64,000 bases of DNA from Escherichia coli. Its GTDB lineage: Bacteria; Pseudomonadota; Gammaproteobacteria; Enterobacterales; Enterobacteriaceae. The position numbers were made by a program, and so were the translations under genes. A model generated the notes under the pieces. It was not told where the DNA came from. It was given only the letters and a program-made list of their open reading frames with translations, and made no database searches. The stretch is from assembly GCF_003991155.1 (NCBI RefSeq), contig NZ_CP031293.1; one strand, 5' to 3'. Shown piece after piece: positions 1-60,170 of this stretch; position 1 is the first letter of the stretch; every line of letters begins with the position of its first letter.

Positions 1-720
1 ATGATCGCCAGTGAAATTAAGCAAAAACTGCATGTTGATGTTCAGGTCGGAGGCGCAGAAGCAGAAGCCGCCATTCAAGGGGCCTTGACTACCCCTGGAA
101 CCACACGTCCACTGGCAATTCTGGACTTAGGTGCAGGCTCTACCGATGCCTCCATCATCAATCAGAAAGGGGAAATTGTTGCCACTCACCTTGCGGGTGC
201 GGGCGACATGGTAACGATGATTATCGTTCGTGAGCTGGGCTTAAATGATCGTTATCTGGCAGAAGAAATCAAAAAGTACCCGTTGGCAAAAGTAGAAAGC
301 CTGTTCCACTTACGCCATGAAGATGGCAGCGTTCAGTTCTTCCCTACTCCCCTATCCCCCTATGTATTTGCCCGCGTCTGTGTAGTGAAACCCGACGAAC
401 TGGTGCCTATTCCCGGTGATTTGACGCTGGAAAAAGTACGCGCTGTTCGTCGCAGTGCGAAAGAGCGTGTCTTCGTAACCAATGCCCTGCGCGCGCTACG
501 TCAGGTAAGCCCTGCCGGAAATATTCGCGACATTCCGTTCGTCGTTCTGGTGGGCGGTTCTTCGCTGGATTTCGAAGTACCACAGTTAGTCACCGATGCA
601 TTGGCGCATTATCGACTGGTCGCCGGACGGGGGAATATCCGTGGTAGCGAAGGTCCGCGCAACGCGGTAGCTACTGGGCTACTCATCGCCTGGCACAAGG
701 AGTCGATTCATGGAAAGTAA
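1..720 (+). CDS. pduG: Diol dehydratase reactivase large subunit, C-terminal 239 aa (gene continues upstream of window)
   Basis: ORF runs from window edge; DLGAGSTD actin/Hsp70-like ATPase motif; followed by pduH-J-K order. Confidence 0.6.
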   Translation: MIASEIKQKLHVDVQVGGAEAEAAIQGALTTPGTTRPLAILDLGAGSTDASIINQKGEIVATHLAGAGDMVTMIIVRELGLNDRYLAEEIKKYPLAKVESLFHLRHEDGSVQFFPTPLSPYVFARVCVVKPDELVPIPGDLTLEKVRAVRRSAKERVFVTNALRALRQVSPAGNIRDIPFVVLVGGSSLDFEVPQLVTDALAHYRLVAGRGNIRGSEGPRNAVATGLLIAWHKESIHGK

Positions 721-1060
721 AGAGCGTGCACCAGCCATCGTCGTCATGGAGATCGGTAACTGCATCACTATATGGGATGAGGTGCTTCTTGGCATTGAAG
801 AGGAAGGTATTCCCTTTCGCATTCAACACATTCCGTCAGGTGAAGTTATCGATAGCGCCTGGCTGGCTGCTCGTCAATCTCCCCTGTTGGTTGGCATTGC
901 CTGCGATCAGGAAAAACTGATTGTGCATTACAAAAACTTACCACCATCAGCGCCACTGTTTACGCTGATGTATCAACAAGATAACCATGCCCGGCGCAGC
1001 ATCGGCACTAACGCTGCCCGCCTGGTAAAAGGAATTCCCTTCCGGGAATTCCACTCATAA
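710..1060 (+). CDS. pduH: Diol dehydratase reactivase small subunit
   Basis: 116 aa, start overlaps upstream stop; position between pduG and shell genes. Confidence 0.6.
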
Positions 1061-1079
1061 TCCACAGGAGAAACGCAGT

Positions 1080-1355
1080 ATGAACAACGCACTAGGACTG
1101 GTTGAAACAAAAGGGTTAGTTGGCGCAATTGAAGCTGCAGATGCCATGGTTAAATCCGCCAACGTGCAGCTGGTTGGCTATGAAAAGATTGGTTCGGGTC
1201 TGATTACGGTGATGGTCCGCGGTGATGTTGGTGCAGTAAAGGCCGCCGTGGATGCGGGGAGCGCTGCGGCAAGCGCAGTTGGCGAAGTGAAATCCTGCCA
1301 TGTCATCCCGCGCCCACACAGTGATGTTGAGGCTATTTTACCTAAATCGGCATAA
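1080..1355 (+). CDS. pduJ: BMC-H microcompartment shell protein
   Basis: 91 aa, canonical BMC domain ([25 protein letters not shown]). Confidence 0.8.
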
Positions 1356-1378
1356 CCCCATTTGCTAAGGAGCACAGC

Positions 1379-1801
1379 GTGAAGCAATCACTGGGATTAC
1401 TTGAAGTCAGTGGTCTGGCACTCGCCATCAGTTGCGCAGATGCTATGGCAAAAGCCGCGTCCATCACGCTGGTTGGCCTTGAGAAGACCAATGGCTCAGG
1501 CTGGACGCTCATCAAAATCACCGGTGACGTCGCCTCGGTTAATGCGGCGATCGCGACGGGAGCCAGTTTCGCCGGACAGCGAAATGGCCTCGTCGCACAC
1601 AAAGTGATTGCCCGTCCGGGAGACGGCATTCTGCCCCACACAACTAAAGCATTGACTGTGACGGTTGAAACAAGCGAAACACCAGCAACAACCGTCATCT
1701 CAGAGATTATCAGTTGTAATTTGTGTCTTGACCCGGCATGTCAGCGGCAAAAAGGTGAGCCCCGCTCACTTTGCCTGCACGCCAATAAGCGAGGGGAGTA
1801 A
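1379..1801 (+). CDS. pduK: BMC shell protein with Cys-rich C-terminal extension
   Basis: GTG start after AAGGAG RBS; N-terminal BMC domain; C-terminal CNLCLDPAC motif. Confidence 0.7.
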   Translation: MKQSLGLLEVSGLALAISCADAMAKAASITLVGLEKTNGSGWTLIKITGDVASVNAAIATGASFAGQRNGLVAHKVIARPGDGILPHTTKALTVTVETSETPATTVISEIISCNLCLDPACQRQKGEPRSLCLHANKRGE

Positions 1802-1803
1802 CA

Positions 1804-2436
1804 GTGGATAAACAAACCTTGCAGGAAACAGTGAGCCAGATTCTGGATGAGATGCGCGAGCGCCCTATCCCTCTGGGTGTTTCCAGTCGTCATATTCATC
1901 TTTCAACAGCGGATTATTTGCGTCTTTTTCCTGAACAACCGATTAGCGAGAAAAAGCCGTTAATGCAACCTGGCCAATTCGCTGCTGAACAGGTTGTTAC
2001 GCTGGAGGGACCAAAAGGTAAATTGCACAACGTTCGCTTGTTGGGGCCGCTACGCAATGCAAGCCAGGTGGAAATTTCCCGGACGGACGCCAGAACGTTA
2101 GGGATCACCGCCCCGCTACGCATGTCAGGCGATCTCAGCGGCACTCCAGGGATTCGTTTGGTAAGCCCATTTGCGGAACTGGAGATCACATCTGGCGTCA
2201 TTGTCGCGCAACGGCATATTCATATGTCTCCGCTGGATGCCCTGATTTATGGCGTTACGCATGGCGATAAAGTGGCGGTTGCCATTGAAGGTGATGAGCG
2301 ACGACTGATATTCGAAAACGTCGCTGTTCGCGTCTCTCCGGATATGCGTCTTGAAATGCATATTGATACCGATGAAGCCAACGCCGCAGGGGCTGATAGC
2401 CCTGACGTTTTTGCCACACTGGTGTCAGTGCCATGA
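1804..2436 (+). CDS. pduL: Phosphate propanoyltransferase
   Basis: 210 aa, GTG start; PduL-like sequence and operon position. Confidence 0.7.
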   Translation: MDKQTLQETVSQILDEMRERPIPLGVSSRHIHLSTADYLRLFPEQPISEKKPLMQPGQFAAEQVVTLEGPKGKLHNVRLLGPLRNASQVEISRTDARTLGITAPLRMSGDLSGTPGIRLVSPFAELEITSGVIVAQRHIHMSPLDALIYGVTHGDKVAVAIEGDERRLIFENVAVRVSPDMRLEMHIDTDEANAAGADSPDVFATLVSVP

Positions 2437-2924
2437 ATAACATGCTGATGCAACGTATTGTTGACGAAGTGGTTTTTCGCCTTAAACAACGTGCGGGAAA
2501 AACACTCGTGCTGACTGTTTTTCAACTGCGAGACGCCAGCGTTCAAGAGATAGTTCATCAGTATGCATCATTACAAATCCGATATGTCGATCTGCCGTTG
2601 TTACGACAACTTGCGGAGAACAAAACGTCAGATCGAGCAGCAATTCAGATACACGAAGCGTTAGCCTGGGGATTGCACATTCAATTGTCGTTGCAGCGTC
2701 ATTTCCTGAACGCCATTGAATTGAAGACTCTCGCCCGTCTACCGCTAAGCTGGTGCGACGAGCAAGGGCAACCGATCTACCTTCATCGTGATCGACTTTT
2801 AAGTTATGCCGATATTGCACAGTTAAGCTCGGGAATACTGGTGTTACAGCGAAAATGTTGTGTGACCGCACTGGCTCGTGAAGCGGCAATTACCCGAAAT
2901 ATTCAGTTAATCAGGCAGGAGTAA
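2433..2924 (+). CDS. pduM: Microcompartment structural protein PduM
   Basis: 163 aa, overlapping start; operon position. Confidence 0.6.
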   Translation: MNNMLMQRIVDEVVFRLKQRAGKTLVLTVFQLRDASVQEIVHQYASLQIRYVDLPLLRQLAENKTSDRAAIQIHEALAWGLHIQLSLQRHFLNAIELKTLARLPLSWCDEQGQPIYLHRDRLLSYADIAQLSSGILVLQRKCCVTALAREAAITRNIQLIRQE

Positions 2925-2927
2925 CCT

Positions 2928-3203
2928 ATGCATCTGGCTCGAGTCACTGGCGCGGTAGTATCCACGCAAAAATCACCTTCTCTGATCGGGAAAAAACTGC
3001 TGCTGGTTCGCCGGGTCAGTGCTGACGGCGAACTGCCTCTCACGCCATTAACCGGCGACGAAGTTGCCGTTGATTCCGTCGGCGCAGGCGTTGGTGAGTT
3101 GGTACTCCTCAGCAGTGGTTCCAGCGCCAGACATGTGTTTTCCGGCCCTAACGAGGCCATCGACCTGGCAGTGGTCGGCATTGTCGATACGCTTTCGCGC
3201 TAA
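2928..3203 (+). CDS. pduN: BMC vertex (pentamer) protein, EutN/CcmL family
   Basis: 91 aa, [16 protein letters not shown]-terminus typical of EutN/PduN. Confidence 0.75.
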
Positions 3204-3214
3204 GGAGCTGAAAG

Positions 3215-4222
3215 ATGGCAATTTATACCCGAACAGGTGATTCAGGAAGTACGTCTTTATTTACCGGACAGCGCGTCAGCAAAACTCATCTACGTGTCGA
3301 AACCTATGGCACGCTGGATGAACTGAACGCGACACTCAGTCTGTGTTATTGCGCCACCGCCATCGAAAGCCATCGCATCTTACTGGAAGCCATTCAACAA
3401 CAGATATTTTGGTTTAGCGCCGAACTCGCCAGTGAAAGCGAACAGCCGTCAGCGCAGCAGCGTTACATCGGTACGGAAGAAATTGCCGCGCTGGAAAACG
3501 CGATCGATAGCGCAATGAACGCCGTCCCCCCGGTTCACAGCTTCATTCTGCCTGGTCGATGTGAAGCTGCAAGCCGCATGCATTTCGCCCGCACGGTGGC
3601 TCGACGGGCTGAAAGACGTCTGGTTGAACTGACAACAGAAACCACCGTCCGGAATGTTTTGCTGCACTATATCAACCGACTTTCCGATTGCCTGTATGCC
3701 CTCGCCCGCGTGGAAGACAACGTTGCTCATCAAAACCTGATGATTCAGGAAATCACAAAACGTTATCACGAAGCCAACCACACACCAGCATTGAAGGAAC
3801 GCACAATGCCGCTCACTTTTCAGGATCTTCACCAGCTCATTCGTAGTGCGGCAATGCGCGCAGATGAACTGCATATTCCCGTTGTCATCAGCATTGTTGA
3901 TGCCAACGGAACAGAAAGTGTTACCTGGCGGATGCCTGATGCCCTGTTGGTCAGCAGTGAACTGGCACCGAAAAAAGCCTGGACCGCCGTGGCGATGAAA
4001 ACGGCAACCCACAAACTTGCTGATACCGTGCAACCCGGCGCGCCGCTTTACGGGCTCGAAAGCCATATGCAAGGCAAAGTCGTCACTTTTGGTGGCGGCT
4101 TCCCCCTCTGGCGTGACGGAAAATTGCTTGGCGGGCTTGGCATCAGCGGCGGTAGCGTTGAACAAGACATGGATATTGCCCAAAGCGCAATGGCGGCAAT
4201 TAACGTGGGAGTAAACCAATGA
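3215..4222 (+). CDS. pduO: ATP:cob(I)alamin adenosyltransferase with C-terminal DUF336-like domain
   Basis: 335 aa; PduO-type N-terminal domain (MAIYTRTGDSGSTSL) plus C-terminal domain. Confidence 0.75.
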   Translation: MAIYTRTGDSGSTSLFTGQRVSKTHLRVETYGTLDELNATLSLCYCATAIESHRILLEAIQQQIFWFSAELASESEQPSAQQRYIGTEEIAALENAIDSAMNAVPPVHSFILPGRCEAASRMHFARTVARRAERRLVELTTETTVRNVLLHYINRLSDCLYALARVEDNVAHQNLMIQEITKRYHEANHTPALKERTMPLTFQDLHQLIRSAAMRADELHIPVVISIVDANGTESVTWRMPDALLVSSELAPKKAWTAVAMKTATHKLADTVQPGAPLYGLESHMQGKVVTFGGGFPLWRDGKLLGGLGISGGSVEQDMDIAQSAMAAINVGVNQ

Positions 4223-5604
4223 ATAACTCTGAATTAGAAACACTGATCCGCAATATTCTGCGTGAGCAGCTTGCCCCCGCTACGCAACGAGCGCAAAGAA
4301 ACGCTATTTTCCAGACTGTTGATGAAGCGGTCTGCGCAGCGCACCAGGCCTTTTTACGCTTTCAACAGTGCCCGCTTAAAACCCGTAGCGCCATTATCAG
4401 CGCCATTCGCGAAGAATTAATGCCCCGCCTTACCGAACTGGCAGAAGAAAGCGCCAGTGAAACAGGGATGGGAAATAAAGAGGATAAGTATCTAAAGAAC
4501 AAAGCAGCACTCAATAATACGCCAGGAATTGAAGATTTAACCACCACTGCACTAACCGGTGATGGTGGCATGGTTTTGTTTGAATACTCCCCGTTTGGGG
4601 TTATTGGCTCGGTCACGCCAAGCACCAACCCCACGGAAACCATCATTAACAACAGCATCAGCATGCTGGCAGCAGGTAATAGCGTCTACTTCAGTCCACA
4701 CCCGGGAGCCAAATACGTTTCGTTAAAACTGATTACCACAATCGAAGACATCGCGTTTCGCTGTAGTGGCATTCACAACCTGATCGTTACCGTATCTGAA
4801 CCGACCTTTGCCGCCACCGAACAGATGATGGCGCACCCTAAAATCAGCGTTCTGGCGATTACCGGCGGTCCGGGGATCGTCGCCATGGGAATGAAAAGTG
4901 GCAAGAAAGTGATTGGTGCCGGTGCGGGTAACCCTCCGTGCATCGTCGATGAAACGGCGGATATTGTGAAAGCCGCCGAAGATATCATCAACGGCGCTTC
5001 ATTTGATTACAACCTGCCGTGTATCGCTGAAAAAAGCCTGATTGTCGTGGCATCAGTGGCAGAGTATTTAATTCAGCAGATGCAAAGTTTTGGCGCGCTT
5101 CTTCTTAACTATGAGCAAACGGAGAAATTGCGTGCAATTTGCCTGCCAGACGGTAGCGCCAACAAAAAACTGGTTGGGAAAAGCCCATCAGCCTTGCTGG
5201 AAGCGGCAGGCCTCCCTTTGCCCGCAAAAGCGCCGCGCCTACTGATTGCTGTTGTCGACGCCAATGATAGTTGGGTTACTTGTGAACAACTGATGCCAAT
5301 GCTGCCCATTGTGAAGGTCAACGATTTTGATAGCGCTCTCGCCCTGGCGTTGAAAGTGGAAGACGGCTTGCACCACACGGCAATTATGCACTCGCAGAAC
5401 GTCTCACGGCTCAACCTTGCCGCGCGCGTTATGCAAACCTCAATCTTTGTCAAAAACGGCCCCTCTTGGGCGGGTATTGGCGTCGGCGGCGAAGGCTTTA
5501 CGACCTTTACTATTGCAACACCGACCGGAGAAGGGACAACGTCAGCACGGACTTTTGCCCGCTCACGACGCTGTGTGTTAACCAGCGGCTTTTCAATTCG
5601 CTAG
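4219..5604 (+). CDS. pduP: CoA-acylating propionaldehyde dehydrogenase
   Basis: 461 aa aldehyde dehydrogenase family; operon position. Confidence 0.8.
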   Translation: MNNSELETLIRNILREQLAPATQRAQRNAIFQTVDEAVCAAHQAFLRFQQCPLKTRSAIISAIREELMPRLTELAEESASETGMGNKEDKYLKNKAALNNTPGIEDLTTTALTGDGGMVLFEYSPFGVIGSVTPSTNPTETIINNSISMLAAGNSVYFSPHPGAKYVSLKLITTIEDIAFRCSGIHNLIVTVSEPTFAATEQMMAHPKISVLAITGGPGIVAMGMKSGKKVIGAGAGNPPCIVDETADIVKAAEDIINGASFDYNLPCIAEKSLIVVASVAEYLIQQMQSFGALLLNYEQTEKLRAICLPDGSANKKLVGKSPSALLEAAGLPLPAKAPRLLIAVVDANDSWVTCEQLMPMLPIVKVNDFDSALALALKVEDGLHHTAIMHSQNVSRLNLAARVMQTSIFVKNGPSWAGIGVGGEGFTTFTIATPTGEGTTSARTFARSRRCVLTSGFSIR

Positions 5605-5614
5605 AGAAACGGAA

Positions 5615-6727
5615 ATGAATACTTTTTCACTGCAGACGCGTTTATACAGCGGACCAGGAAGTCTCAAGGTACTTAGCCGTTTCTCTCATAGACACATCTG
5701 GATTATTTGCGATGCCTTTCTGGCACACTCACCACTCATTGACACGTTGCATCAGGCGCTGCCAGACAGTAATCGTCTCAGTATTTTTAGCGAAATAACG
5801 CCCGACCCAACTATCCAGACCGTGGTGAAAGGCATTGCGCAAATGCAGACTTTACGCCCGGATGTGGTTATCGGTTTTGGCGGCGGTTCTGCCCTGGACG
5901 CCGCAAAAGCGATTGTCTGGTTTGGTCGCCAGTGTGGCATTGAAATTGAAACCTGCGTAGCCATTCCTACCACCAGCGGTACCGGTTCCGAAGTGACCAG
6001 TGCTTGTGTCATCAGCGATCCTGAGAAAGGGATTAAATATCCCCTTTTCGATAATGCACTTTATCCGGATATCGCGATCCTTGATCCATCTCTGGTCGTC
6101 AGCGTGCCACCGGCGATAACGGCCAATACCGGGATGGATGTTTTAACCCATGCGCTTGAAGCTTATGTTTCTCCTCGCGCCAGCGACTTCACGGATGCAC
6201 TGGTCGAAAAAGCCGTGCAAATTGTTTTTCAATACCTGCCCACTGCAGTGAAGAAAGGCGATTGTCTCGCCACCCGTGGCAAAATGCATAATGCATCGAC
6301 ACTTGCAGGAATGGCCTTTAGCCAGGCTGGACTGGGATTAAACCATGCAATTGCTCATCAACTCGGCGGACAGTTTCATCTGCCACACGGCCTGGCGAAT
6401 GCGCTCCTGCTCACGGCGGTTATCCGCTTTAATGCTGGCGATCCGCGCGCTGCCAAACGCTACGCCCGGCTGGCGAAAACGTGCCATTTATGCCCGGACA
6501 ACGCCAATGACACCGCCAGCCTGAATGCACTTATTCAACATATTGAACAGCTTAAAACAACCTGTACGCTGCCGACTCTTACCAATGCGCTGAAAGAAAA
6601 AAAAGCAGAATGGTCAATACGCATACCAGATATGGTTCAGGCGGCACTGGCGGATGCAACGTTGCGTACCAACCCGCGTGCGGCTGATGCCTCCGCGATT
6701 GCAGAACTGCTCGAGGAGTTGTTATGA
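5615..6727 (+). CDS. pduQ: Propanol dehydrogenase (iron-containing alcohol dehydrogenase)
   Basis: 370 aa, Fe-ADH motifs (GGGSALDAAK). Confidence 0.8.
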   Translation: MNTFSLQTRLYSGPGSLKVLSRFSHRHIWIICDAFLAHSPLIDTLHQALPDSNRLSIFSEITPDPTIQTVVKGIAQMQTLRPDVVIGFGGGSALDAAKAIVWFGRQCGIEIETCVAIPTTSGTGSEVTSACVISDPEKGIKYPLFDNALYPDIAILDPSLVVSVPPAITANTGMDVLTHALEAYVSPRASDFTDALVEKAVQIVFQYLPTAVKKGDCLATRGKMHNASTLAGMAFSQAGLGLNHAIAHQLGGQFHLPHGLANALLLTAVIRFNAGDPRAAKRYARLAKTCHLCPDNANDTASLNALIQHIEQLKTTCTLPTLTNALKEKKAEWSIRIPDMVQAALADATLRTNPRAADASAIAELLEELL

Positions 6728-8067
6728 ACGTCGAGTTAACCTCCTGCGACGACCAGACCATCCGCGAGCGAGTACAGGCAGCAGGTGTCGTGGGTGCTGG
6801 CGGGGCAGGTTTTCCAACCCATATTAAGCTACAAGCGCGTGTTGACACGTTCCTGGTGAATGCGGCGGAATGCGAACCCATGTTGAAAGTGGATCAACAG
6901 TTAATGGTGCAGCAAGCCAGCCGCCTGCTTCGCGGTGTTCACTATGCGATGAAAGCCACCGGGGCCAGTAGCGGAATCATCGCGCTGAAAGAGAAATATC
7001 AACGGGCAATAAACGCACTCACACCACTGTTACCACCGGATATCCGCCTGCATATTTTGCCCGATGTTTACCCCGCAGGAGACGAAGTGCTGACCATCTG
7101 GATGGCAACTGGTCGCCGCGTTCCACCCGCTGCATTACCCGTTAGCGTCGGTGTGGTGGTCAATAATGTTCAAACCGTACTTAATATTGCCAGAGCCGTC
7201 GAGCAACAGTATCCAGTGACGCGCCGCACACTCACTATTAATGGTGCAGTGGCGAAACCAATAACGGTAACCGTCCCCATCGGCATGTCTTTCCGTGAAG
7301 TCCTGGCGCTGGCGGGCGGCGCAACAGTAGATGCTCCTGGTTTTATCAATGGCGGGCCGATGATGGGAAGTTTGATCACATCGCTCGACACACCCGTCAG
7401 CAAAACCACTGGCGGCTTGCTGGTTTTACCCAACTCTCATTCACTGATCCAACGTCGAATGCAGAATGACCGCAGCGTACTTACCGTCGCGAAAACTGTT
7501 TGTGAGCAATGCCGCTTGTGTACCGATCTCTGCCCACGTCATTTAGTCGGTCACGAACTGGCCCCCCATTTATTAGTACGTGCGGTTAACTACCAACAGC
7601 TCGCTACGCCACAACTGTTACTGACGGCGCTCACCTGTTCGGAGTGCAACGTCTGCGCCAGCGTCGCCTGTCCGGTAGGAATTTTACCAATGCGCATAAA
7701 CCGCCTGCTTAAGCAGGAATTACGCGCACAAAATCTCCGCTACGAAGGTGCCTTAAATCCTGCAGATCCCTTGGCAAATTATCGACTGGTTCCCGTAAAA
7801 CGGCTGGTAACCAGACTGGGCTTAACCCCGTGGTATCAGGATGCGCCATTGTCTGAACAGGTGCCTCAGCCCGAAAAAGTGACGTTATTGTTACGCCAGC
7901 ACATCGGTGCCAGCGCAATTGCGTGTGTACAAAAAGGCGATCGCGTCGTTCATGGGCAATGTGTAGGTCAAATTCCACACGGCACATTAGGTGCCCCCAT
8001 TCATGCCAGTATTGATGGCATGGTCAGCGATGTGACAGAAAACGCGATTACGCTTGTGAGAGGTTAA
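6724..8067 (+). CDS. pduS: Cobalamin reductase, RnfC-like Fe-S flavoprotein
   Basis: 447 aa with two Cys clusters ([25 protein letters not shown]). Confidence 0.75.
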
Positions 8068-8069
8068 CG

Positions 8070-8624
8070 ATGTCGAAAGCGGTAGGTATTTTAGAACTTA
8101 GCAGTATCGCGAAAGGGATGGAAACCGGCGACGCCATGCTGAAAAGCGCCAACGTTGAGTTACTGGTCAGCAAAACGCTATGCCCCGGAAAATTTCTGCT
8201 GATGCTCGGTGGCGATGTGGGCGCGGTGCAACAGGCCATCAACAGCGGTGCTTCCCTTGCTGGTGAAATGCTGGTCGACAGTCTTGTCCTGCCGAATATT
8301 CATCCCAGTCTCCTTTCTGCAATCAGCGGACTGAACCAAGTTGAACAGCACCGGGCTGTCGGCGTAGTCGAAACCTGGAGTGTCGCCGCCTGCATTGACG
8401 CTGCCGATTGTGCTGTCAAAGCTGCGAATGTCATTCTTGTTCGCGTGCATATGGCTTTTGGCATTGGCGGTAAATGCTACATGGTGGTTGCTGGCGATAT
8501 TTCAGATGTTAATAACGCGGTCTCTGTCGCCAGCGAGCGTGCGGGAGAAAAAGGTTTGTTGGTCTATCGGTCGGTGATTGCCCGTCCACATGAAGCCATG
8601 TGGCGTCAGATGGTGGAGGGATAA
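8070..8624 (+). CDS. pduT: Tandem BMC-domain shell protein
   Basis: 184 aa, two BMC domains; stop overlaps pduU start. Confidence 0.75.
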
Positions 8625-8974
8625 TGACAACTCAGCACACAACTGAACGGATGATTCAGGAATATGTCCCTGGTAAGCAGGTCACGCTGGCACATGTCAT
8701 CGCCAATCCAGGGAAGGATCTGTTTAAGAAATTGGGTTTACCAGACACCGTTTCTGCTATTGGCATTCTGACGATTACCCCCAGCGAAGCATCTATCATC
8801 GCATGCGATATCGCCACAAAATCAGGCGCTGTAGAGATCGGTTTTCTTGATCGTTTTACCGGTGCCGTAGTGCTGACTGGTGATGTTTCTGCCATTGAAT
8901 ATGCACTTAGCCAGGTTACCCGTACGCTGGGTGAAATGATGCGCTTTACCACCTGCCCCATTACGCGGACCTGA
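8624..8974 (+). CDS. pduU: Permuted BMC shell protein
   Basis: 116 aa from ATG at 8624 (TAATG overlap with pduT). Confidence 0.7.
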
Positions 8975-8978
8975 CGTT

Positions 8979-9422
8979 ATGCAACGTATGATGCTTATCG
9001 GCCCCAGCCAGTGCGGAAAAACGTCACTCACGCAATGTCTGCGTGGCGAAAATATCCATTATCAGAAAACGCAGGCAATCGTCTGGTCCCCGACCACCAT
9101 TGATACACCAGGCGAATACCTCGAAAACCGCAGCCTCTACAGTGCATTGTTGGTCAGTGCCTGCGAAGCAGACATTATCGCGCTGGTACTTAATGCGGAC
9201 GCACCGTGGTCACCTTTTTCGCCAGGCTTTACCTCGTCAATGAATCGCCCGGTCATTGGAGTAGTAACCAAAGCAGATTTAGCCAGTATGGAACAAATAT
9301 CTTTGGTGAAATGTTGGTTACGGGAAGCTGGAGCGCACAACGTGTTAGTAACCAGTGCGGTTAATAACAATGGAGTTACAGAAGTTTTTGCCTTGCTGCA
9401 TACAGAAGAAGGCTGTCGCTAA
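8979..9422 (+). CDS. pduV: EutP/PduV-family GTPase
   Basis: 147 aa, P-loop GPSQCGKTS. Confidence 0.75.
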
Positions 9423-13238: not shown

Positions 13239-13306
13239 TTAACCTAATGATGAATGACGGTAAGCAACAATCTACCTTTTTGTTTCACGATTACGCGCAA
13301 CACCCC
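13239..13306 (+). pseudogene. sbcB: Displaced native 5' end of sbcB (first ~16 codons) left at prophage left junction
   Basis: ATGATGAATGACGGTAAGCAACAATCTACCTTTTTGTTTCACGATTACG encodes MMNDGKQQSTFLFHDY, then diverges into phage DNA and stops. Confidence 0.6.
13275..13287. repeat. attL core (13-bp identity with attR)
   Basis: TTTCACGATTACG identical to 53257-53269; flanks are imperfectly similar. Confidence 0.6.
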
Positions 13307-13348
13307 TGAGAACCGCCATAAACAAGGGTTTCATGATTTGTGATTTTA

Positions 13349-13375
13349 GTTTGGTACGCAATTTGGTACACAACA
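13349..13375. promoter_or_regulatory. Candidate integrase arm-type binding sites (left arm)
   Basis: Tandem TTTGGTACGC / TTTGGTACAC motifs, same motif repeated near the right junction. Confidence 0.4.
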
Positions 13376-13814
13376 CAATTTTCACTTCAGCGGGTAGTCA
13401 TCAAACTCACCATAACGCACTTCGTTGATGATGTACGTGATCACCAAAAATATCGCATCCGGACTAGTTCCATCTTCATGCGCAGGCATATGTTCATGCC
13501 TACCTGTCTGCAAACCAGTAATAAGCCATTACAGGGTGATAGTGATGCATCAACTACGTTAAGCGCAGAGAAATGATGCAGTGGTGGGCGGATTGGCTTG
13601 ATGAAAAGGTGGAGTGATCCACCTTAACCACTATCGAAGAGCACAAAGCCTTGCAATCCAGTGCAAAGCTTTGTGTGTCTCAGTTTTGTTTCATAGGTAA
13701 TCATGCGTTCACTACGATGCAAGAATCCATACCAAATTTTATTTAAAACTCACAAATACACTAGATAAAAACAATCCCGCAGTTTTCATGCGGGATATAC
13801 TGCATTTATTGCAA

Positions 13815-16292
13815 CTACATTGCCATTAATATAAACATAGCCAATTCGTCATAACGAATTCCGTAGCGTCCACCTGCTTTTTTTACAAGAATCATATTTC
13901 CTGTTTTATATTGAGAATAAATTTTCTCACCTGTATCAGGATCTGTGCTCTCTTCAGTTATCACCTCTTCATCCCATACGTCTGGCCATTCATCGTAACA
14001 CCAAAAAGCATATTGCTCAGGATTTAAACCATGCTTTCTAAGAATATCTCCTACGGTTTGAGCGCCAACTCCAAAATGATACCTTGATAACTCCAATCCT
14101 TTAAAATTAATCGACTCATTAAACCTGAACTTGCATATAATTCCCTTTATTTCCAGCGCAGCATCACGCTCTGCCTGAGTAATGTCATATATTGTTTTAA
14201 GTGTTTCATCTGATGTGCTTATAGTCCCGGATGCAGAATAAATCTGAGCCCATCTAAATGATGGTGCACCAAGAGATTTGCTGTTATCAATAATTGGTGA
14301 AAAATTACCTTTAATGGCAATATTTCCAGAGTCGCCGAATATATTAATAACTGTAGAGTCATCACCATGGTTTTTTACGCTTAAGTTTCTTGATAAAATA
14401 TTTATATCTTTGTTATACCCACTAACATTAATCCATCTTTTACCATCAATGTGATACCCGTAAATATTTCCGTTTGATTGTTCGTCAGGTGACTCTCTAA
14501 GAACAATAGCATCTACTCCAGACGACCATTGTATTTTTGTATCTGTAGGCCTCCAGTTCTTTATAATGAACGAACCATCAGTAAACTCCGTTTTTATTTG
14601 TCTATTGTCTACAAATGCGTCTCTTGGTTTAAACTCACTTGTGTTAACGCTGCTCTGAAGATCAGAAGCAAAAAATCTAAGATTTCCTGTATAACCCTGA
14701 GTCTCGGTCAGGTTATACGCAATCATAATTCCATTTTCAAACTCAGATGATGTTATTTTAACATCACGGCAATCACCAAAAATGCAATTTCCTTTATCAA
14801 ATGTTGTTTGAGCTTTGAATTTATCAAACCTTAAATTACGAACAGGGAAACCATCAACCTCTAATGCAAAGGATGCATGAAGGCCAAAGTATTCTGATGG
14901 CTTACCTGATGTATGATCAAGAGTAGTGGCTACTGTATTCTCAAAAACAGTCCCGCTAAAATTATTACCAATTGACGGAAACCTGATTACACTTATTGTA
15001 CCTTGTATTTCAGGAGAAATACCAGATAGTGTGATGTTAGTTCCATCAAATGATGCATCTGAATACGTATATACTGATTCACTGCCAGCAATTTTAAACT
15101 GTTTAACTGAAGTTATTCTCATCGACTTTTTATGTTTAAATGTCACTGAGCTTTCAGTATTACTTACAAGATCAATCTGAGGGCTATTCCTTATCGCGAT
15201 TCCTGACTGGACATAAACGTTATTAAAGTGCGTTTTTTCAGGATTTCCCTTCATTGAAAGGCTCCCGTCATTTTCTGTCAGTAGTAGTCCTTTTACCCTC
15301 CAATAGCCGACAATCTGTACGTTATCAATAACTGAATCACAGCTATCGTATACATGCAACCCTATATCCCAGTTATCACCCAATGAATAAGAATCAGGGT
15401 TATTGTATCCTTCAATACCATTTTTACTTACCATTATTCTCAGATTGCGTAACTGTGATGCCCTGTTGATACTAACAGCTACGCTCATGGCTTTTGGTGT
15501 AGCAGGAGTAACACCTACAGAATCTTCATTCGTAAACTCAGTGAACTTACAAGATATCCCTTCAACAATTTTAACCGGTCTTTCATTAGAGATGTTAAAA
15601 AAATATTTGTTTTTTTCTCCATCACCAGTAAATACAAGATGGGTTCCTTTACTCCAACTTTTTAATAATCTTTCAGGCGCTGGTCTATATGTATCCCAAT
15701 AATCAATGCCAGATCCAACCAGTGAACACCCCTCAGGAATGTTAATATTCTTCTTGATGATGCATATTCCTTCCGGAATTGTTATAACCGACCTTCCAGA
15801 GTTTAAAGCTTTAATAAAAGCATCTGAATCATCTGTTTCCCCATCTATTTTTGCTCCCCACCCTCTAACATCTCCACAATCTCTCCATCGTGCCATCTGC
15901 AACTCAGGATATTTTTTAGCGCCATCTGGATCTTCTAATTGCTGCCGTAGCTGATCGGGGTCATACTTCAGCACATTAGGAAAATAGAACTGCTGCGCAC
16001 CATATGCATCATAAACAGCCATAGAATGGCCTTGCACAGTTACAAACTTGGCTATTTGCCCGTTATATACCGGGTAACCAGCAGCGTTAATGATGATTGG
16101 TTGCGAAACAGGAACGTGAGAGCCATCTTCGTTCTCCACATAAACCTGAATCTGGTTTTCAGGATTTACAGGGTCAGTGTCAATTTTACCGATATAAATT
16201 TTGCCATTGGCAACCGCTTTAAAAGAACGTGCCATAGTGAAGAGTTGAGAAGGCATACTCACTACAACATTGGCATTTATCGAATCTGTCAT
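13815..16292 (-). CDS. Tailspike: P22 gp9-like head-binding N-domain, divergent receptor-binding domain, C-terminal intramolecular-chaperone-like domain
   Basis: 825 aa; N-terminus resembles P22 tailspike; SDETLK motif about 150 aa from C-terminus. Confidence 0.85.
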
Positions 16293-16391
16293 TTAATTTG
16301 CTCCAGATACAAGGAATCGCCGCAGCATGGCTACGGTGAATTTTGGGCATAAAAAACCCAGCCGAAGCTGGGTCGTTGCGTTGGTTATCTG

Positions 16392-51691: not shown

Positions 51692-51883
51692 ATGACCGAT
51701 ACCAGCCTGATTCCTGAGAAAGAAGTGATGAACAAGCTCGGTGTTTCATCACGTCAGACAATCTGGAACTATACCAAACGGCACGGATTTCCGAAGCCAG
51801 TCAGAACCCACCCCAAATCATACCTTCGTGAAGCTGTTGAAGGGTGGATTCTTAACGGTGGCGTTAATCAGAAATGCTCCTGA
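51692..51883 (+). CDS. xis: AlpA-family excisionase / DNA-binding regulator
   Basis: 63 aa with HTH (LGVSSRQTIWNYTKRHGFPKP); adjacent to integrase. Confidence 0.7.
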   Translation: MTDTSLIPEKEVMNKLGVSSRQTIWNYTKRHGFPKPVRTHPKSYLREAVEGWILNGGVNQKCS

Positions 51884-53042
51884 TGTGCCAGAACAATTTA
51901 TCAGCGTGAAGCTCATACGCTTTGCGCTGAGCCTCTATCCAGTCGTGTTTATTGTATACGGACATTATCCCGCCAAGTTCATGACCGAGCATTCGCTCAG
52001 TAACATGAGGCTCGACATTCATCTCGGACAGACGTGTAACAAGCGTTCTTCTGAAATCGTGTGTTCGCCAGTAACCTAGATCCATCCCTCCCCTTATTCT
52101 ATTTACGAATCGGTTGGCTGCAGCGATGCTGATCGGTTTGTTTATGTCTTCTCCAGGGAAAAGAACATCATTGTACGTTGTCATGGCCTTTTCGAGGAAA
52201 GGCTTAATTTGTTCGAAGATTGGACGGCGGATAGCATTACCCATCTTGCTATGCTCTTTCGGTACGGTCCATACGTTTTCCAGCAGGTCAAATTCTGTCT
52301 TTTTTGCCAGCCTAAGCTCTGAGAGCCTCGCCCCCCACAGCATAAGCATCTGATGAAGTAGCTTATTTGACGTAGACGCACGGCTTCTTTCAATAGCAAG
52401 CCAAATCTTAGCCAGTTCGTGATACGACAGTACACGATCCCCTACCTCAGCGCGGGAGCCGAAGTCCCTTGGTTGGATGCTCATAATTGCGCAACTATCT
52501 ATCAACTGACGCCGCATGCACCAACTTATTGCTGATCTTAGTTGACTTAGCACCTGCCTTGCTCGGCGTGGATTATCTCTTTCTTCTTCGGTAAGCAGGT
52601 CAACCCATTGCTTAACCGTGATAGAAGATGCCGGACGATTAGGGAAGGCGTCATGCATGCGCTTCATAACCGTTGATCGGTAAAGTGCCTGGGTCTTTTC
52701 TCTGAGAGTTGTAGAGACGTAGTTGTCGAACCAGTAGTCGAGACACTGGGCGACCGTCATGGAGTTCTCCACCTTCTCTTCAAAATAAGTGCGTGGATCC
52801 GTTCCTGAGAAATAGAGCTTTCGCAAGTCAGCAGTGATCTGTCTGGCATCCTTCAAAGACATGGATGGGTATCGACCAAGCCCAAGTCGATTAGGCTTGC
52901 CATGCCAGCGATAGCGGTACTGGAACTGGATGACCCCCTTCGGTGAAATTCGTACGCTGAGGCCATCGGCATCAGCCACTTCTTGTGGGCCCGAATATGG
53001 TTTACCATAAATAGTACGAAGTTTTGTGTCGCTTATAGCCAT
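51864..53042 (-). CDS. int: Tyrosine site-specific integrase
   Basis: 392 aa; C-terminal HDFRRT...LGH catalytic region; next to right junction. Confidence 0.9.
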   Translation of the reverse strand: MAISDTKLRTIYGKPYSGPQEVADADGLSVRISPKGVIQFQYRYRWHGKPNRLGLGRYPSMSLKDARQITADLRKLYFSGTDPRTYFEEKVENSMTVAQCLDYWFDNYVSTTLREKTQALYRSTVMKRMHDAFPNRPASSITVKQWVDLLTEEERDNPRRARQVLSQLRSAISWCMRRQLIDSCAIMSIQPRDFGSRAEVGDRVLSYHELAKIWLAIERSRASTSNKLLHQMLMLWGARLSELRLAKKTEFDLLENVWTVPKEHSKMGNAIRRPIFEQIKPFLEKAMTTYNDVLFPGEDINKPISIAAANRFVNRIRGGMDLGYWRTHDFRRTLVTRLSEMNVEPHVTERMLGHELGGIMSVYNKHDWIEAQRKAYELHADKLFWHIRSISD

Positions 53043-53223: not shown

Positions 53224-54648
53224 ATGACAGACACAGATAAACAACCTACCTTCCTCTTTCACGATTACGAAACCTTTGGAACGCACCCCGCGTTAGATCG
53301 CCCTGCACAGTTCGCAGCCATTCGCACTGATAACGAATTCAATGTCATCGGCGAACCCGAAGTCTTTTACTGCAAGCCCGCGGATGACTATTTACCCCAG
53401 CCTGGAGCAGTATTAATTACCGGTATTACCCCGCAGGAGGCACGGGCGAAAGGAGAAAACGAAGCCGCGTTTGCCGCCCGTATTCACTCGCTTTTTACCG
53501 TACCGAAGACCTGTATTCTGGGCTACAACAATGTGCGTTTCGACGACGAAGTCACACGCAACGTTTTTTATCGTAATTTCTACGATCCTTACGCCTGGAG
53601 CTGGCAGCATGATAACTCGCGCTGGGATTTACTGGATGTTATGCGTGCCTGTTATGCCCTGCGCCCGGAAGGAATAAACTGGCCTGAAAATGATGACGGT
53701 CTACCGAGCTTTCGCCTTGAGCATTTAACCAAAGCGAATGGTATTGAACATAGCAACGCCCACGATGCGATGGCTGATGTGTACGCCACTATTGCGATGG
53801 CGAAACTGGTAAAAACGCGTCAGCCACGCCTGTTTGATTATCTCTTTACCCATCGTAATAAACACAAACTGATGGCGTTGATTGATGTTCCGCAGATGAA
53901 ACCCCTGGTTCACGTTTCCGGAATGTTTGGGGCATGGCGTGGCAATACCAGCTGGGTGGCACCGCTGGCGTGGCATCCTGAAAATCGCAATGCCGTAATT
54001 ATGGTGGATTTGGCAGGAGACATTTCGCCATTACTGGAGCTGGATAGCGACACATTGCGCGAGCGTTTATATACCGCAAAAGCCGATCTTGGCGATAACG
54101 CCGCCGTTCCGGTTAAGCTGGTGCATATCAATAAATGTCCGGTACTGGCCCAGGCGAATACGCTACGCCCGGAAGATGCCGACCGACTGGGAATTAATCG
54201 TCAGCATTGCCTCGATAACCTAAAAATTCTGCGTGAAAATCCGCAAGTGCGTGAAAAAGTGGTGGCGATATTCGCGGAAGCCGAACCGTTTACGCCTTCA
54301 GATAACGTGGATGCACAGCTTTATAATGGCTTTTTCAGTGACGCCGATCGTGCAGCAATGAAAATTGTGCTGGAAACCGAGCCGCGTAATTTACCGGCAC
54401 TGGATATCACTTTTGTTGATAAACGAATTGAAAAACTGTTGTTCAATTATCGAGCGCGCAACTTCCCGGGGACGCTGGATTATGCCGAGCAGCAACGCTG
54501 GCTTGAGCACCGCCGCCAGGTCTTCACGCCAGAGTTTTTGCAGGGCTACGCTGATGAATTGCAGATGCTGGCACAACAGTATGCCGATGACAAAGAGAAA
54601 GTGGCGCTGTTAAAAGCGCTTTGGCAGTACGCGGAAGAGATTGTCTAA
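53224..54648 (+). CDS. sbcB: Exodeoxyribonuclease I; first ~11 codons supplied by the prophage
   Basis: 474 aa; N-terminus MTDTDKQPTFLFHDYETFG differs from the remnant MMNDGKQQSTFLFHDY at attL. Confidence 0.9.
   Translation: MTDTDKQPTFLFHDYETFGTHPALDRPAQFAAIRTDNEFNVIGEPEVFYCKPADDYLPQPGAVLITGITPQEARAKGENEAAFAARIHSLFTVPKTCILGYNNVRFDDEVTRNVFYRNFYDPYAWSWQHDNSRWDLLDVMRACYALRPEGINWPENDDGLPSFRLEHLTKANGIEHSNAHDAMADVYATIAMAKLVKTRQPRLFDYLFTHRNKHKLMALIDVPQMKPLVHVSGMFGAWRGNTSWVAPLAWHPENRNAVIMVDLAGDISPLLELDSDTLRERLYTAKADLGDNAAVPVKLVHINKCPVLAQANTLRPEDADRLGINRQHCLDNLKILRENPQVREKVVAIFAEAEPFTPSDNVDAQLYNGFFSDADRAAMKIVLETEPRNLPALDITFVDKRIEKLLFNYRARNFPGTLDYAEQQRWLEHRRQVFTPEFLQGYADELQMLAQQYADDKEKVALLKALWQYAEEIV
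53257..53269. repeat. attR core (13-bp identity with attL)
   Basis: TTTCACGATTACG inside sbcB codons 12-16. Confidence 0.6.
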
Positions 54649-57527: not shown

Positions 57528-57793
57528 GGTCATTCTCCTTTACGGTGATAACCGTCGCGTAAGCAAAAAATTGCCCCATTTTTTTGGATTCCTCAGCGAC
57601 AACAACTGTCGATTTTTAGTAAATATCTATCCGGTACGAAGCCCGGCCTCTTGGTATGAATGATTGGTTTGAAGCAAAAAATAACCGACGCTAATTAAAC
57701 GTCGGTTTTTAGTCATTTTTTGACAGCGGCGCATTGTGCCTAAATGGGGGGGAAATGACAAGAGAATGAGAGGCTTGTCATAATAATTTTTCT

Positions 57794-60019: not shown

Positions 60020-60070
60020 ATGACACGCGTTCAATTTAAACACCACCATCATCACCATCATCCTGACTAG
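60020..60070 (+). CDS. hisL: his operon leader peptide
   Basis: MTRVQFKHHHHHHHPD with seven consecutive His codons. Confidence 0.9.
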   Translation: MTRVQFKHHHHHHHPD

Positions 60071-60170
60071 TCTTTCAGGCGATGTGTGCTGGAAGACATT
60101 CAGATCTTCCAGTGGTGCATGAACGCATGAAAAAGCCCCCGGAAGATCACCTTCCGGGGGCTTTTTTATT
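60071..60170 (+). promoter_or_regulatory. his attenuator including terminator hairpin
   Basis: Hairpin AAAGCCCCCGGAAGATCACCTTCCGGGGGCTTTTTT at 60132-60170. Confidence 0.8.

Follow-up and report, generated by a model that had tools for sequence, protein, structure and literature searches.

The window analysed here, a stretch of 64,000 nucleotides from Escherichia coli (contig NZ_CP031293.1), holds a P22-like prophage in the 5' end of sbcB, with an intact tailspike gene at the end of the prophage (Table 1). The locus raises the question of which surface structure this tailspike recognises and from what parts it is made. The tailspike is a three-module mosaic of a head-binding domain, a beta-helix body and a C-terminal chaperone domain of the peptidase S74 type. 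Taken as a whole, we regard as quite probable the reading that this sbcB prophage tailspike, with its three modules, is directed at the K14 capsule and carries a chaperone that removes itself.

A three-module tailspike at the end of an sbcB prophage

A preliminary description had proposed a chimeric tailspike, and the proposal holds: an intact ORF for 825 aa occupies exactly 13815..16292 on the minus strand and comprises three modules. Genes of 97-99% nucleotide identity carry the RefSeq label 'phage tailspike protein' in 19 genomes; a search of the tailspike against NCBIfam returned no family. The gene is the last of the virion module and lies beside the immI (ant/arc/mnt) region, as expected for a P22-like tailspike. 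Ant, two Arc-like repressors and an integrase (51864-53042, minus strand; PHROG 1, E=9e-74) are recognised in the window, and the annotation of DP051 places a DNA-transfer (ejection) protein upstream of the tailspike.

Table 1. Coordinates, in the window, of the tailspike gene, its modules and the flanking elements.
Feature	Position	Strand	Remarks
Tailspike CDS, complete	13815..16292	-	ATG-to-stop ORF; 825 aa, 91.9 kDa; PHROG 1171 tail spike, E=2e-203
Module 1 (aa 1-119), head-binding domain for attachment to the tail hub	15936..16292	-	Pfam, PDB phmmer
Linker plus beta-helix N-terminal cap, aa 120-194	15711..15935	-	Pfam, PDB 9vvr, breakpoints
Module 2, receptor-binding body, aa 195-653	14334..15710	-	right-handed parallel beta-helix; predicted K14 capsule-binding/depolymerase
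C-terminal stalk, aa 654-693, ending in ASGTIST ahead of the predicted cleavage site	14214..14333	-	Pfam, 4hiz alignment
Module 3, intramolecular chaperone (peptidase S74 type), aa 694-825	13818..14213	-	132 aa, 15.3 kDa; phmmer, Foldseek
SDETLK motif, aa 694-699	14196..14213	-	predicted nucleophile Ser694, general base Lys699
Terminator-like hairpin between ant and the tailspike start	16355..16374	-	pattern scan
Intrinsic-terminator-like hairpin and T-run, just past the tailspike stop codon	13774..13796	-	pattern scan; sequence read
attP arm of the prophage, non-coding	13296..13773		no CDS in DP051 annotation
att core copy, tailspike end, TTTCACGATTACG	13283..13295		in displaced 5' stub of sbcB; empty K-12 site comparison, exact-repeat search
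att core copy 2, int end	53257..53269		empty K-12 site comparison, exact-repeat search

The similarity of the first ~115 residues to the capsid-binding domain of P22 gp9, also noted earlier, is borne out. Pfam Head_binding (PF09008) spans aa 4-114 (E=3.9e-65), and phmmer against the PDB matched Sf6 gp14 (7sg7) to aa 1-119 (E=2e-63) and P22 gp9 (E~1e-48). Divergence from P22 after the N-terminus had likewise been predicted, and similarity to P22 and Sf6 does end at about aa 119; N-terminal identity is 94% to HK620 up to aa 125 and 87% to CUS-3 up to aa 164. The linker and helix cap that follow are matched by Pfam Pect-lyase_RHGA_e at aa 142-197 (E=2.6e-5) and by PDB entry 9vvr_A at ~aa 117-197 (E=4e-16; positions 4-84 when the body alone is the query), and in some phages (CUS-3, Gally, 683R2) this segment moves together with module 1.

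The body is predicted to fold as a right-handed parallel beta-helix, as is characteristic of P22-like tailspikes; in the AF2 monomer model, whose pLDDT averages 76, most of the body and of the C-terminal domain exceeds 80. Sequence identity between the body and its nearest solved beta-helices amounts to just 10-17%. No homology to the catalytic beta-helix of P22 gp9 was detected, and the body-only search of the PDB returned no chain of P22, Sf6 or HK620. The GC content of module 2 is 35.9%, compared with 47.3% for the prophage. The GH58 sialidase domains PF12217, PF12218 and PF12195 have no Pfam match in the protein, and End_tail_spike is matched only over its final 40 positions, in the stalk; since none of the GH58 families match, the tailspike is not an endosialidase.

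The prophage is integrated in sbcB, not in a tRNA gene, it supplies sbcB with a new start codon at 53224, and no tRNA genes were found in the window. A non-coding interval of ~500 bp had been described between the tailspike and attL. Both its size and its non-coding nature stand, with 519 bp separating the att core (13283-13295) from the tailspike stop codon (13815) and no supported gene, but the name does not: under the lambda/P22 convention the prophage end distal to int is attR. A 78-aa ORF with a GTG start (13340-13576) was considered as a gene and rejected as spurious, because it has no PHROG match and is situated within an att arm that is conserved. Positions 13296-13694 of the window are 88-91% identical to the mostly unannotated ends of sbcB-integrating mEp234, Sf101 and the Stx phages 1717 and 2851. 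No Rfam family reached the gathering threshold in the arm. P22 has gtrABC downstream of its tailspike and Sf6 has oac; here, in agreement with the preliminary description, the interval from tailspike to att has no conversion gene of the gtr, oac or neuO type, and none is annotated in DP051.

The C-terminal chaperone domain and the exchange of modules

The last 132 residues are related to the intramolecular chaperones of the peptidase S74 type. The Pfam match to Peptidase_S74 (PF13884) is weak (E=7e-4); phmmer comparison with solved chaperone domains gave 7y5s (2e-17), 9vvr (7e-15), T5 pb1 4uw8 (6e-13), 6eu4 (8e-12), endoNF 3gw6 (3e-10) and GA-1 3gud (1e-6). SDETLK is aligned with TADARLK in 4uw8, TANGERK in 3gw6 and TSDARLK in 7y5s, such that Ser694 and Lys699 coincide, in the crystallised 3gw6 and 4uw8 mutants, with the Ser replaced by Ala and with the Lys, and both residues are invariant in 38 homologues (36-98% identity). 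The Ser-x4-Lys dyad thus stands at the start of the domain, as it does in S74 proteins, and the earlier assignment to this class is upheld by the phmmer matches, the alignment and the invariance of the dyad. The motif, which lies at aa 694-699, had been correctly read as SDETLK, but its stated distance of 'about 150 aa' from the C-terminus is too long: because 131 residues follow Ser694, the predicted released domain has 132 aa. The T5 pb1 chaperone, at 133 aa, is of similar size (PMC4690869). Fold similarity to S74 chaperones, on which the preliminary description had staked the assignment beforehand, was found with Foldseek: 3gw6 was matched with E=9e-10 and probability 1.0, 4uw8 with 3e-9 and 3gud_B with a TM score of 0.76 over 133 columns. 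The pLDDT is 75-92 across aa 700-825 of the monomer model.

The stalk that precedes the motif matches positions 121-160 of the 160 in Pfam End_tail_spike (E=2e-3) and can be aligned with residues 645-683 of 4hiz, the phi92 endosialidase, where the mature chain ends in GTINT; by both comparisons it ends at the cleavage site, as in other S74 proteins. In the AF2 monomer model, aa 666-693 of the stalk have a pLDDT below 50. Judging from these alignments, the C-terminal domain is predicted to be released by autocleavage between T693 and S694.

Moreover, the modules have been exchanged among phages. Over aa ~195-686 the protein is ~99% identical to the tail fibre of a T7-like prophage, an identity that collapses exactly at the cleavage motif, and the two proteins have different chaperone alleles. 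The body is also fused to other virion adaptors (PF18668, PF03906, PF12236 and PF12571) and is present in epsilon15-like, phi92-like and Vectrevirus phages. Endosialidase chaperone domains are said to act as interchangeable folding aids, and the swapping of the chaperone as a cassette, with the break at the motif, fits such a role. If the proposed reading is confirmed, the locus would offer a natural and clean example of recombination breakpoints located exactly at an S74 cleavage motif.

Host association and the likely receptor

We surveyed 5426 complete E. coli genomes, a set separate from the window's own genome. The body is carried by only 28, in P22-like prophages (19 genomes) or T7-like prophages (10), with one genome having both; four carriers have two copies of the body, and the pair in ECE170 consists of a P22-like tailspike and a T7-like fibre. 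The carrier prophages occupy sbcB, argW (next to intS) or yfgI. A large genome rearrangement is seen in the argW-site carriers W4 and E50. At least four types of O-antigen cluster (O5, O6, O15 and O83) are represented among the carriers. The same group-2 kps region 2, containing galE, a gene for a 760-aa glycosyltransferase and one for an O-acetyltransferase, is present in 27 of the 28, including all 19 with the P22-like form, against a background of 106 of the 5426 genomes; the figure of 27 reflects GF43, the one carrier with no entry among the K14 matches listed. The Fisher p for region 2 in carriers versus all genomes is ~6e-47, a value inflated by phylogenetic non-independence, and ~2e-27 after probable clones are collapsed by eye. 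The association does not derive from a single clone, because region 2 falls into at least four allele groups in the carriers and the prophages occupy several sites. Conversely, about three quarters of the K14 genomes lack the body, which thus is not the sole route to K14 hosts.

We identify the shared region 2 as that of K14 because strain JJ1886 carries it (97.4% identity, full coverage) and has a capsule locus labelled K14 (Fig. 2 legend in PMC10866875). The K14 reference strain is O6:K14:H31, and for the reference cluster, of 13.9 kb, the 761-aa ORF K14_8 and a Kdo-transferase-like domain are described (PMC13171606). The classical O15:K52 pairing made K52 a candidate for the common capsule; it was rejected, as the kTYPr tables number at least 13 genes for the K52 cluster, compared with three K-specific genes here, and JJ1886 points to K14. 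The K14 capsule is a Kdo-containing polymer, with a repeat that is reportedly GalNAc-Kdo.

The earlier prediction of a receptor unlike that of P22 agrees with these results, the body being unrelated to gp9 and the host data pointing elsewhere. Of the two targets then put forward, O-antigen or capsule, only the capsule is retained, as O-types vary and kps region 2 is constant in 27 of 28 carriers. From the host association we conclude that the tailspike is specific for the K14 capsule; it is probably a depolymerase. No K14 depolymerase was found in the literature searched, and we lean towards the view, held with modest confidence, that the body is the first molecularly identified depolymerase of the E. 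coli K14 capsule, a Kdo-glycan-cleaving member of an uncharacterised sequence family that passes as a cassette between temperate prophages of the P22-like and T7-like kinds.

In the mechanism that we envisage, aa 1-119 would attach the trimer to the tail hub, as the head-binding domains of P22 and Sf6 do, and aa ~195-693 would recognise, and probably cleave, the group-2 K14 capsular polysaccharide. By this degradation, probably hydrolytic, the virion would be able to bore through the capsule and reach the outer membrane. The last 132 residues would nucleate trimerisation and the folding of the C-terminal stalk; upon trimerisation, the chaperone would then remove itself through a cut between T693 and S694 catalysed by Ser694 and Lys699, leaving a mature subunit of 76.7 kDa.

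Most characterised P22-like tailspikes target O-antigen, and three carriers have O15 in common. The tailspike could accordingly be an O-antigen-specific endoglycosidase like those of P22, Sf6 and HK620, with the K14 link a by-product of lineage structure. However, bodies 99% identical to one another occur in O5, O83, O15 and O6 hosts, DP051 is the sole carrier among 35 O5 genomes, and the O15 carriers are only three among the ~84 listed of 100 O15 genomes. K14 region 2, on the other hand, accompanies the body with several alleles and in three prophage contexts, and we consider an O-antigen target highly improbable. Colanic acid, or another widely shared exopolysaccharide, is judged just as unlikely a substrate, although wca clusters are found in all carriers examined and PHROG 8280, 'tail spike protein with colonic acid degradation activity', is the second-best label of the tailspike (aa 2-369, E=2e-117).

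Even with K14 as the ligand, the spike might act as an adhesin that binds the capsule without enzymatic activity. No catalytic residues have been pinpointed in the body, and adhesins without enzymatic activity, PfbA for instance, share the beta-helix fold. Yet seven carboxylates (D306, D309, E352, E478, D499, E519 and D562) are near-invariant across homologues, the close structural neighbours of the body among phage proteins are all depolymerases, and a short-tailed podovirus has to get through the capsule layer; pure adhesion is thus unlikely, and enzymatic degradation of K14 is what we infer. As to the C-terminal domain, the weak Pfam S74 score could suit a tip that is retained for structure or receptor binding, a reading that appears decidedly unlikely given that the invariant Ser and Lys align with proven dyad positions, that the residues ahead of the Ser align with the mature, post-cleavage end of 4hiz, and that cassette exchange of the domain has its breakpoint at the motif. 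A self-cleaving chaperone thus remains the preferred reading of module 3.

In E. coli lineages that are unrelated, and in two types of prophage, the body goes together with the K14 group-2 capsule. K14 has been reported among the K types most tied to invasive disease, including in multidrug-resistant CC131 and CC69 (PMC13171598). Should K14 specificity be borne out, the mature protein of 77 kDa could serve directly as a reagent for K14 typing and as an enzyme to strip the capsule, and the body as a sequence marker with which to predict the host range of temperate phages.

Relation to known tailspikes

The architecture is ordinary: modular tailspikes with a P22-type adaptor, a swapped body and an S74 chaperone have been known since CUS-3, and proteins that combine Head_binding with S74 form large database clusters. 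What is new is the likely receptor, the K14 target being a testable prediction. P22 gp9, Sf6 gp14 and the HK620 tailspike share the head-binding domain (~69-75% identity for P22, ~94% for Sf6 and HK620), the trimeric beta-helix design (the trimer being predicted here) and the gene position, but their bodies are O-antigen endoglycosidases with no detectable sequence similarity past aa ~119-125, and they lack a cleaved S74 domain. The solved chaperones of the K1F endosialidase (3gw6), T5 pb1 (4uw8), GA-1 gp12 (3gud) and Klebsiella phage Kp7 gp51 (7y5s) resemble module 3 in sequence (E 2e-17 to 1e-6), Ser-x4-Lys dyad and fold; they are, however, attached to different mature proteins and share only ~20-35% identity, and cleavage in the present case is predicted. 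PDB entry 9vvr_A, 'Tail spike protein' (843 aa, 18 chains), for which the literature search found no paper, is similar in the linker and helix cap and in the chaperone, but its body has no detectable sequence similarity.

The body and stalk find their closest relative in the T7-like prophage 'tail fiber domain-containing protein' (cluster P0006, 918 aa; for example in ECONIH2, at yfgI), whose hosts also carry the K14 kps region; this fibre differs at its N-terminus, where the adaptor fits a T7-type tail, and in its chaperone allele (TSDGREK...). As a whole, the design is that of the endosialidase tailspike of CUS-3 (siaK1, 981 aa), a P22-like prophage of E. coli RS218 that is specific for K1. 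Both have the P22-type N-terminal domain, a capsule-specific middle part and a C-terminal S74 chaperone, with TSDGTLK of CUS-3 aligned to TSDETLK here, and both genes occupy the same place after ant. In CUS-3, however, the body is a GH58 sialidase beta-propeller (PF12217/PF12218 in the cluster) directed at K1, and the capsule-modifying gene neuO lies downstream; the tailspike described here has a pectate-lyase-like beta-helix with K14 as its predicted target, a chaperone only 34% identical, and a non-coding att arm in the place of neuO.

Modules and predicted maturation of the tailspike

Among PDB sequences, Sf6 gp14 (E=2e-63) and P22 gp9 (E~1e-48) match residues 1-119 of the tailspike, where the similarity ends, and Pfam places Head_binding (PF09008) at residues 4-114 (E=3.9e-65); the P22 gp9-like N-terminus, diverging afterwards, of the preliminary description is thus borne out. 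A pectate-lyase-like cap (residues 142-197; Pfam, E=2.6e-5) follows, and the middle of the AlphaFold2 model (mean pLDDT 76) is a right-handed parallel beta-helix with pLDDT mostly 80-96. Of 5426 complete E. coli genomes, 19 carry a gene that is 97-99% identical along its whole length and is labelled 'phage tailspike protein' in RefSeq.

Judged by sequence comparison, the body is a mobile cassette. Strain ECONIH2 has, at yfgI, a T7-like prophage whose 'tail fiber domain-containing protein' shares ~99% amino-acid identity with the body over residues ~195-686; remoter copies (46-80% identity) occur in one epsilon15-like phage, one phi92-like phage and one Vectrevirus, and in a large protein database several other virion adaptors are joined to it. 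At 35.9%, the GC content of the body is lower than that of the prophage (47.3%) and of the window (48.7%), which would fit acquisition of the cassette from a foreign source. Identity between the tailspike and its T7-like counterpart breaks off precisely at the cleavage motif, where the fibre reads …NGSINTSDGREK, so that the chaperone domain represents a third, independently exchanged module. The ECONIH2 prophage (L008; NZ_CP014667.1 2696315-2712379), a temperate T7-like element adjoining yfgI with the K14-associated body, also has holin/endolysin genes and encodes an SLT transglycosylase and a core protein of the T7 gp14 family; this record annotates the fibre gene as a pseudogene ('missing C-terminus').

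The SDETLK motif noted previously is present at residues 694-699, but not about 150 residues from the C-terminus: 131 residues lie beyond the Ser, giving a C-terminal domain of 132. Pfam assigns residues 694-756 to Peptidase_S74 (E=7e-4) and residues 654-693 to the last 40 positions of End_tail_spike (E=2e-3). Moreover, the C-terminal ~175 residues show sequence similarity to six solved chains bearing intramolecular chaperone domains, those of Kp7 gp51 (7y5s, 2e-17), 9vvr (7e-15), T5 pb1 (4uw8, 6e-13), AS12 gp42 (6eu4, 8e-12), K1F endosialidase (3gw6, 3e-10) and GA-1 gp12 (3gud, 1e-6). TSDETLK aligns with TSDARLK (7y5s), TADARLK (4uw8) and TANGERK (3gw6); the 4uw8 and 3gw6 crystal proteins are reportedly Ser-to-Ala nucleophile mutants (T5 S1264, endoNF S911), the general base Lys being K1269 in T5 and K916 in endoNF. 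S694 and K699 are among only 11 invariant columns in an alignment of 38 homologues (36-98% identity). A Foldseek search with the model, whose pLDDT is 75-92 across residues 700-825, returned 3gw6 (E=9e-10, probability 1.0), 4uw8 (3e-9) and 3gud (TM 0.76), in line with the S74-type fold proposed earlier. The stretch preceding Ser694 aligns with the very end of the mature phi92 endosialidase (4hiz), and we infer cleavage between T693 and S694; self-cleavage there would leave a mature subunit of 76.7 kDa and release a fragment of 15.3 kDa.

Probable receptor of the body

The tailspike, from a temperate P22-like phage, is most likely specific for the K14 capsule, which it is predicted to bind and probably to cleave. 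The O-antigen, the default expectation for a receptor, was tested first, but the hosts of bodies sharing 99% identity have four or more unrelated O-antigens, which speaks against an O-antigen as the target. The body is rare (28 of 5426 complete E. coli genomes) yet present twice in four of its 28 carriers, NZ_CP196906.1 (ECE170), NZ_CP019243.1 (Combat2C1), NZ_OZ040490.1 and NZ_CP121153.1 (E57), which points to a rare receptor common to the hosts; ECE170 has one copy in a P22-like tailspike, the other in a T7-like prophage fibre. The same host can be lysogenised twice by phages with the same predicted receptor, suggesting no receptor-level superinfection exclusion.

DP051 has a group-2 kps locus adjoining yghD, with a region 2 made up of galE, a 760-aa ORF, which many genomes annotate as 'LipB/KpsS family', and a CatB-like O-acetyltransferase. 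Region 2 of this type is found in 131 genomes (106 at full length). Among the matches listed are at least 27 of the 28 carriers, every one of the 19 that have the P22-like tailspike among them; GF43 is the sole carrier not seen there. Fisher's exact test for the association of body and region 2 gives p=6e-47, or 2e-27 with probable clones collapsed by eye, both values ignoring phylogeny. The carriers cover several O types, three integration sites and two phage types, and their region 2 falls into at least four allele groups (100/99.9%, 97.6%, 97.4% and 96.4% identical to that of DP051). The suggestion of a receptor specificity other than that of P22 is supported, and the evidence favours a capsule over an O-antigen. 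Colanic acid is suggested as the target by a PHROG label of the tailspike, but the narrow restriction of the body to K14 and the separate colanidase of phage SD2 make it improbable. An endosialidase is excluded by the lack of GH58 domains (Pfam); nor is the body homologous to that of the P22 endorhamnosidase, PDB sequence similarity to P22 being limited to the N-terminus.

The common locus is called K14 because JJ1886, whose locus is given as K14 in the legend of Fig. 2 of PMC10866875, has DP051-type region 2 (97.4% identity, full coverage), and on the strength of the kTYPr paper (PMC13171606): the K14 reference cluster (reference strain O6:K14:H31) is 13.9 kb, as is the kpsM-to-kpsF locus of DP051, K14_8 is a 761-aa ORF with an N-terminal GT-A domain, and a Kdo-transferase-like domain is ascribed to several K types, K14 being one of them. 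K52, guessed from the classical O15:K52 pairing, was dropped, its cluster being larger. The K14 repeat, reportedly described by Jann et al. in 1983 as GalNAc-Kdo with O-acetylation, fits the epimerase, two-domain transferase and acetyltransferase of region 2.

In two K14 lysogens an insertion sequence separates galF from the start of the O-antigen genes: IS1 in DP051 (locus L003, 24752-25449) and ISAs1 in M160133, which also has a frameshifted fnlA (locus L007, 6385-7521, 11097-12130). Some encapsulated K14 lysogens may thus express their O-antigen poorly.

Prophage ends and chromosomal flanks

Comparison with K-12, whose dacD-sbcB site is unoccupied, places the prophage inside the 5' end of sbcB, at ~13.3 to 53.3 kb; no tRNA genes were found within the window. 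The 13-bp att core falls in sbcB codons 12-16. A replacement start codon and N-terminus come from the phage end (MTDTDKQPTFLFHDY... for MMNDGKQQSTFLFHDY...), so that sbcB stays intact, and the original codons 1-16 are left as a stub at the opposite junction. Ant and two Arc-like repressors are encoded directly upstream of the tailspike, a layout that is also that of P22 and CUS-3.

The 519 bp from the tailspike stop codon to the att core contain no gene annotated in DP051, no Rfam family at gathering threshold and a sole ORF (78 aa, GTG start) without PHROG match, as expected of the non-coding interval of ~500 bp without gtrABC described before; the end then named attL is int-distal, hence attR by convention. 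The att-proximal part of the interval has 88-91% identity to mostly unannotated ends of phages with a known sbcB site (mEp234, Sf101 and Stx phages 1717 and 2851), and is taken to be the attP arm.

Features of the prophage and its flanks (window coordinates)
Feature	Position	Strand	Remark
Propanediol-utilisation operon, 3' part	1-9422	+	chromosomal flank
Junctions	13247-13295 and 53224-53269		
att core	13283-13295 and 53257-53269		exact 13-mer repeat TTTCACGATTACG at both prophage junctions
Putative attP arm	13296-13694		
Tailspike CDS	13815-16292	-	single intact ORF, 825 aa
Low-GC body	14230-15710	-	
Terminator-like hairpins			both sides of tailspike gene
Integrase	51864-53042	-	
sRNA STnc240	57674-57748	-	Rfam, 69.3 bits; chromosomal flank right of prophage
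His operon leader	60046-60169	+	Rfam, 132.9 bits; chromosomal flank right of prophage

The microcompartment operon lies upstream of tmaR/yeeX, yeeA, sbmC and dacD, and NCBIfam recognises in it PduG reactivase, PduL phosphate propanoyltransferase, PduO adenosyltransferase, PduT, PduV, a PduP-type aldehyde dehydrogenase, an Fe-alcohol dehydrogenase and a PduS-like RnfC-type protein; near this position K-12 has the CP4-44 region instead. In the argW-site carriers W4 and E50 (loci L010 and L011), elf-ompA-helD occupies the expected place of rfb, ~347 kb from the prophage, which indicates a major chromosomal rearrangement relative to O15_8X and NCCP12480.

Comparison with known tailspikes

The architecture of the tailspike is already known: there are large clusters of Head_binding+S74 proteins, such as a CUS-3-like one with 3581 members and another with 264, and tailspike module exchange among unrelated phages, capsule-targeting P22-like ones included, has been described (bioRxiv 10.64898/2026.05.19.726188). 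The added value lies in the K14 prediction. This K type, present in CC131 and CC69, is reported to be one of those with the highest invasive potential (PMC13171598). No K14 depolymerase was found in the searched literature. The genes following the tailspike are gtrABC in P22 and oac in Sf6, and CUS-3 has the surface-modifying neuO, whereas this prophage has no surface-modifying gene there. The protein, predicted to form a trimer, would act in the manner of the CUS-3 K1 tailspike, with a beta-helix depolymerase in place of the sialidase; the N-terminal modules of the two are 87% identical up to residue 164, but their chaperone domains just 34%.
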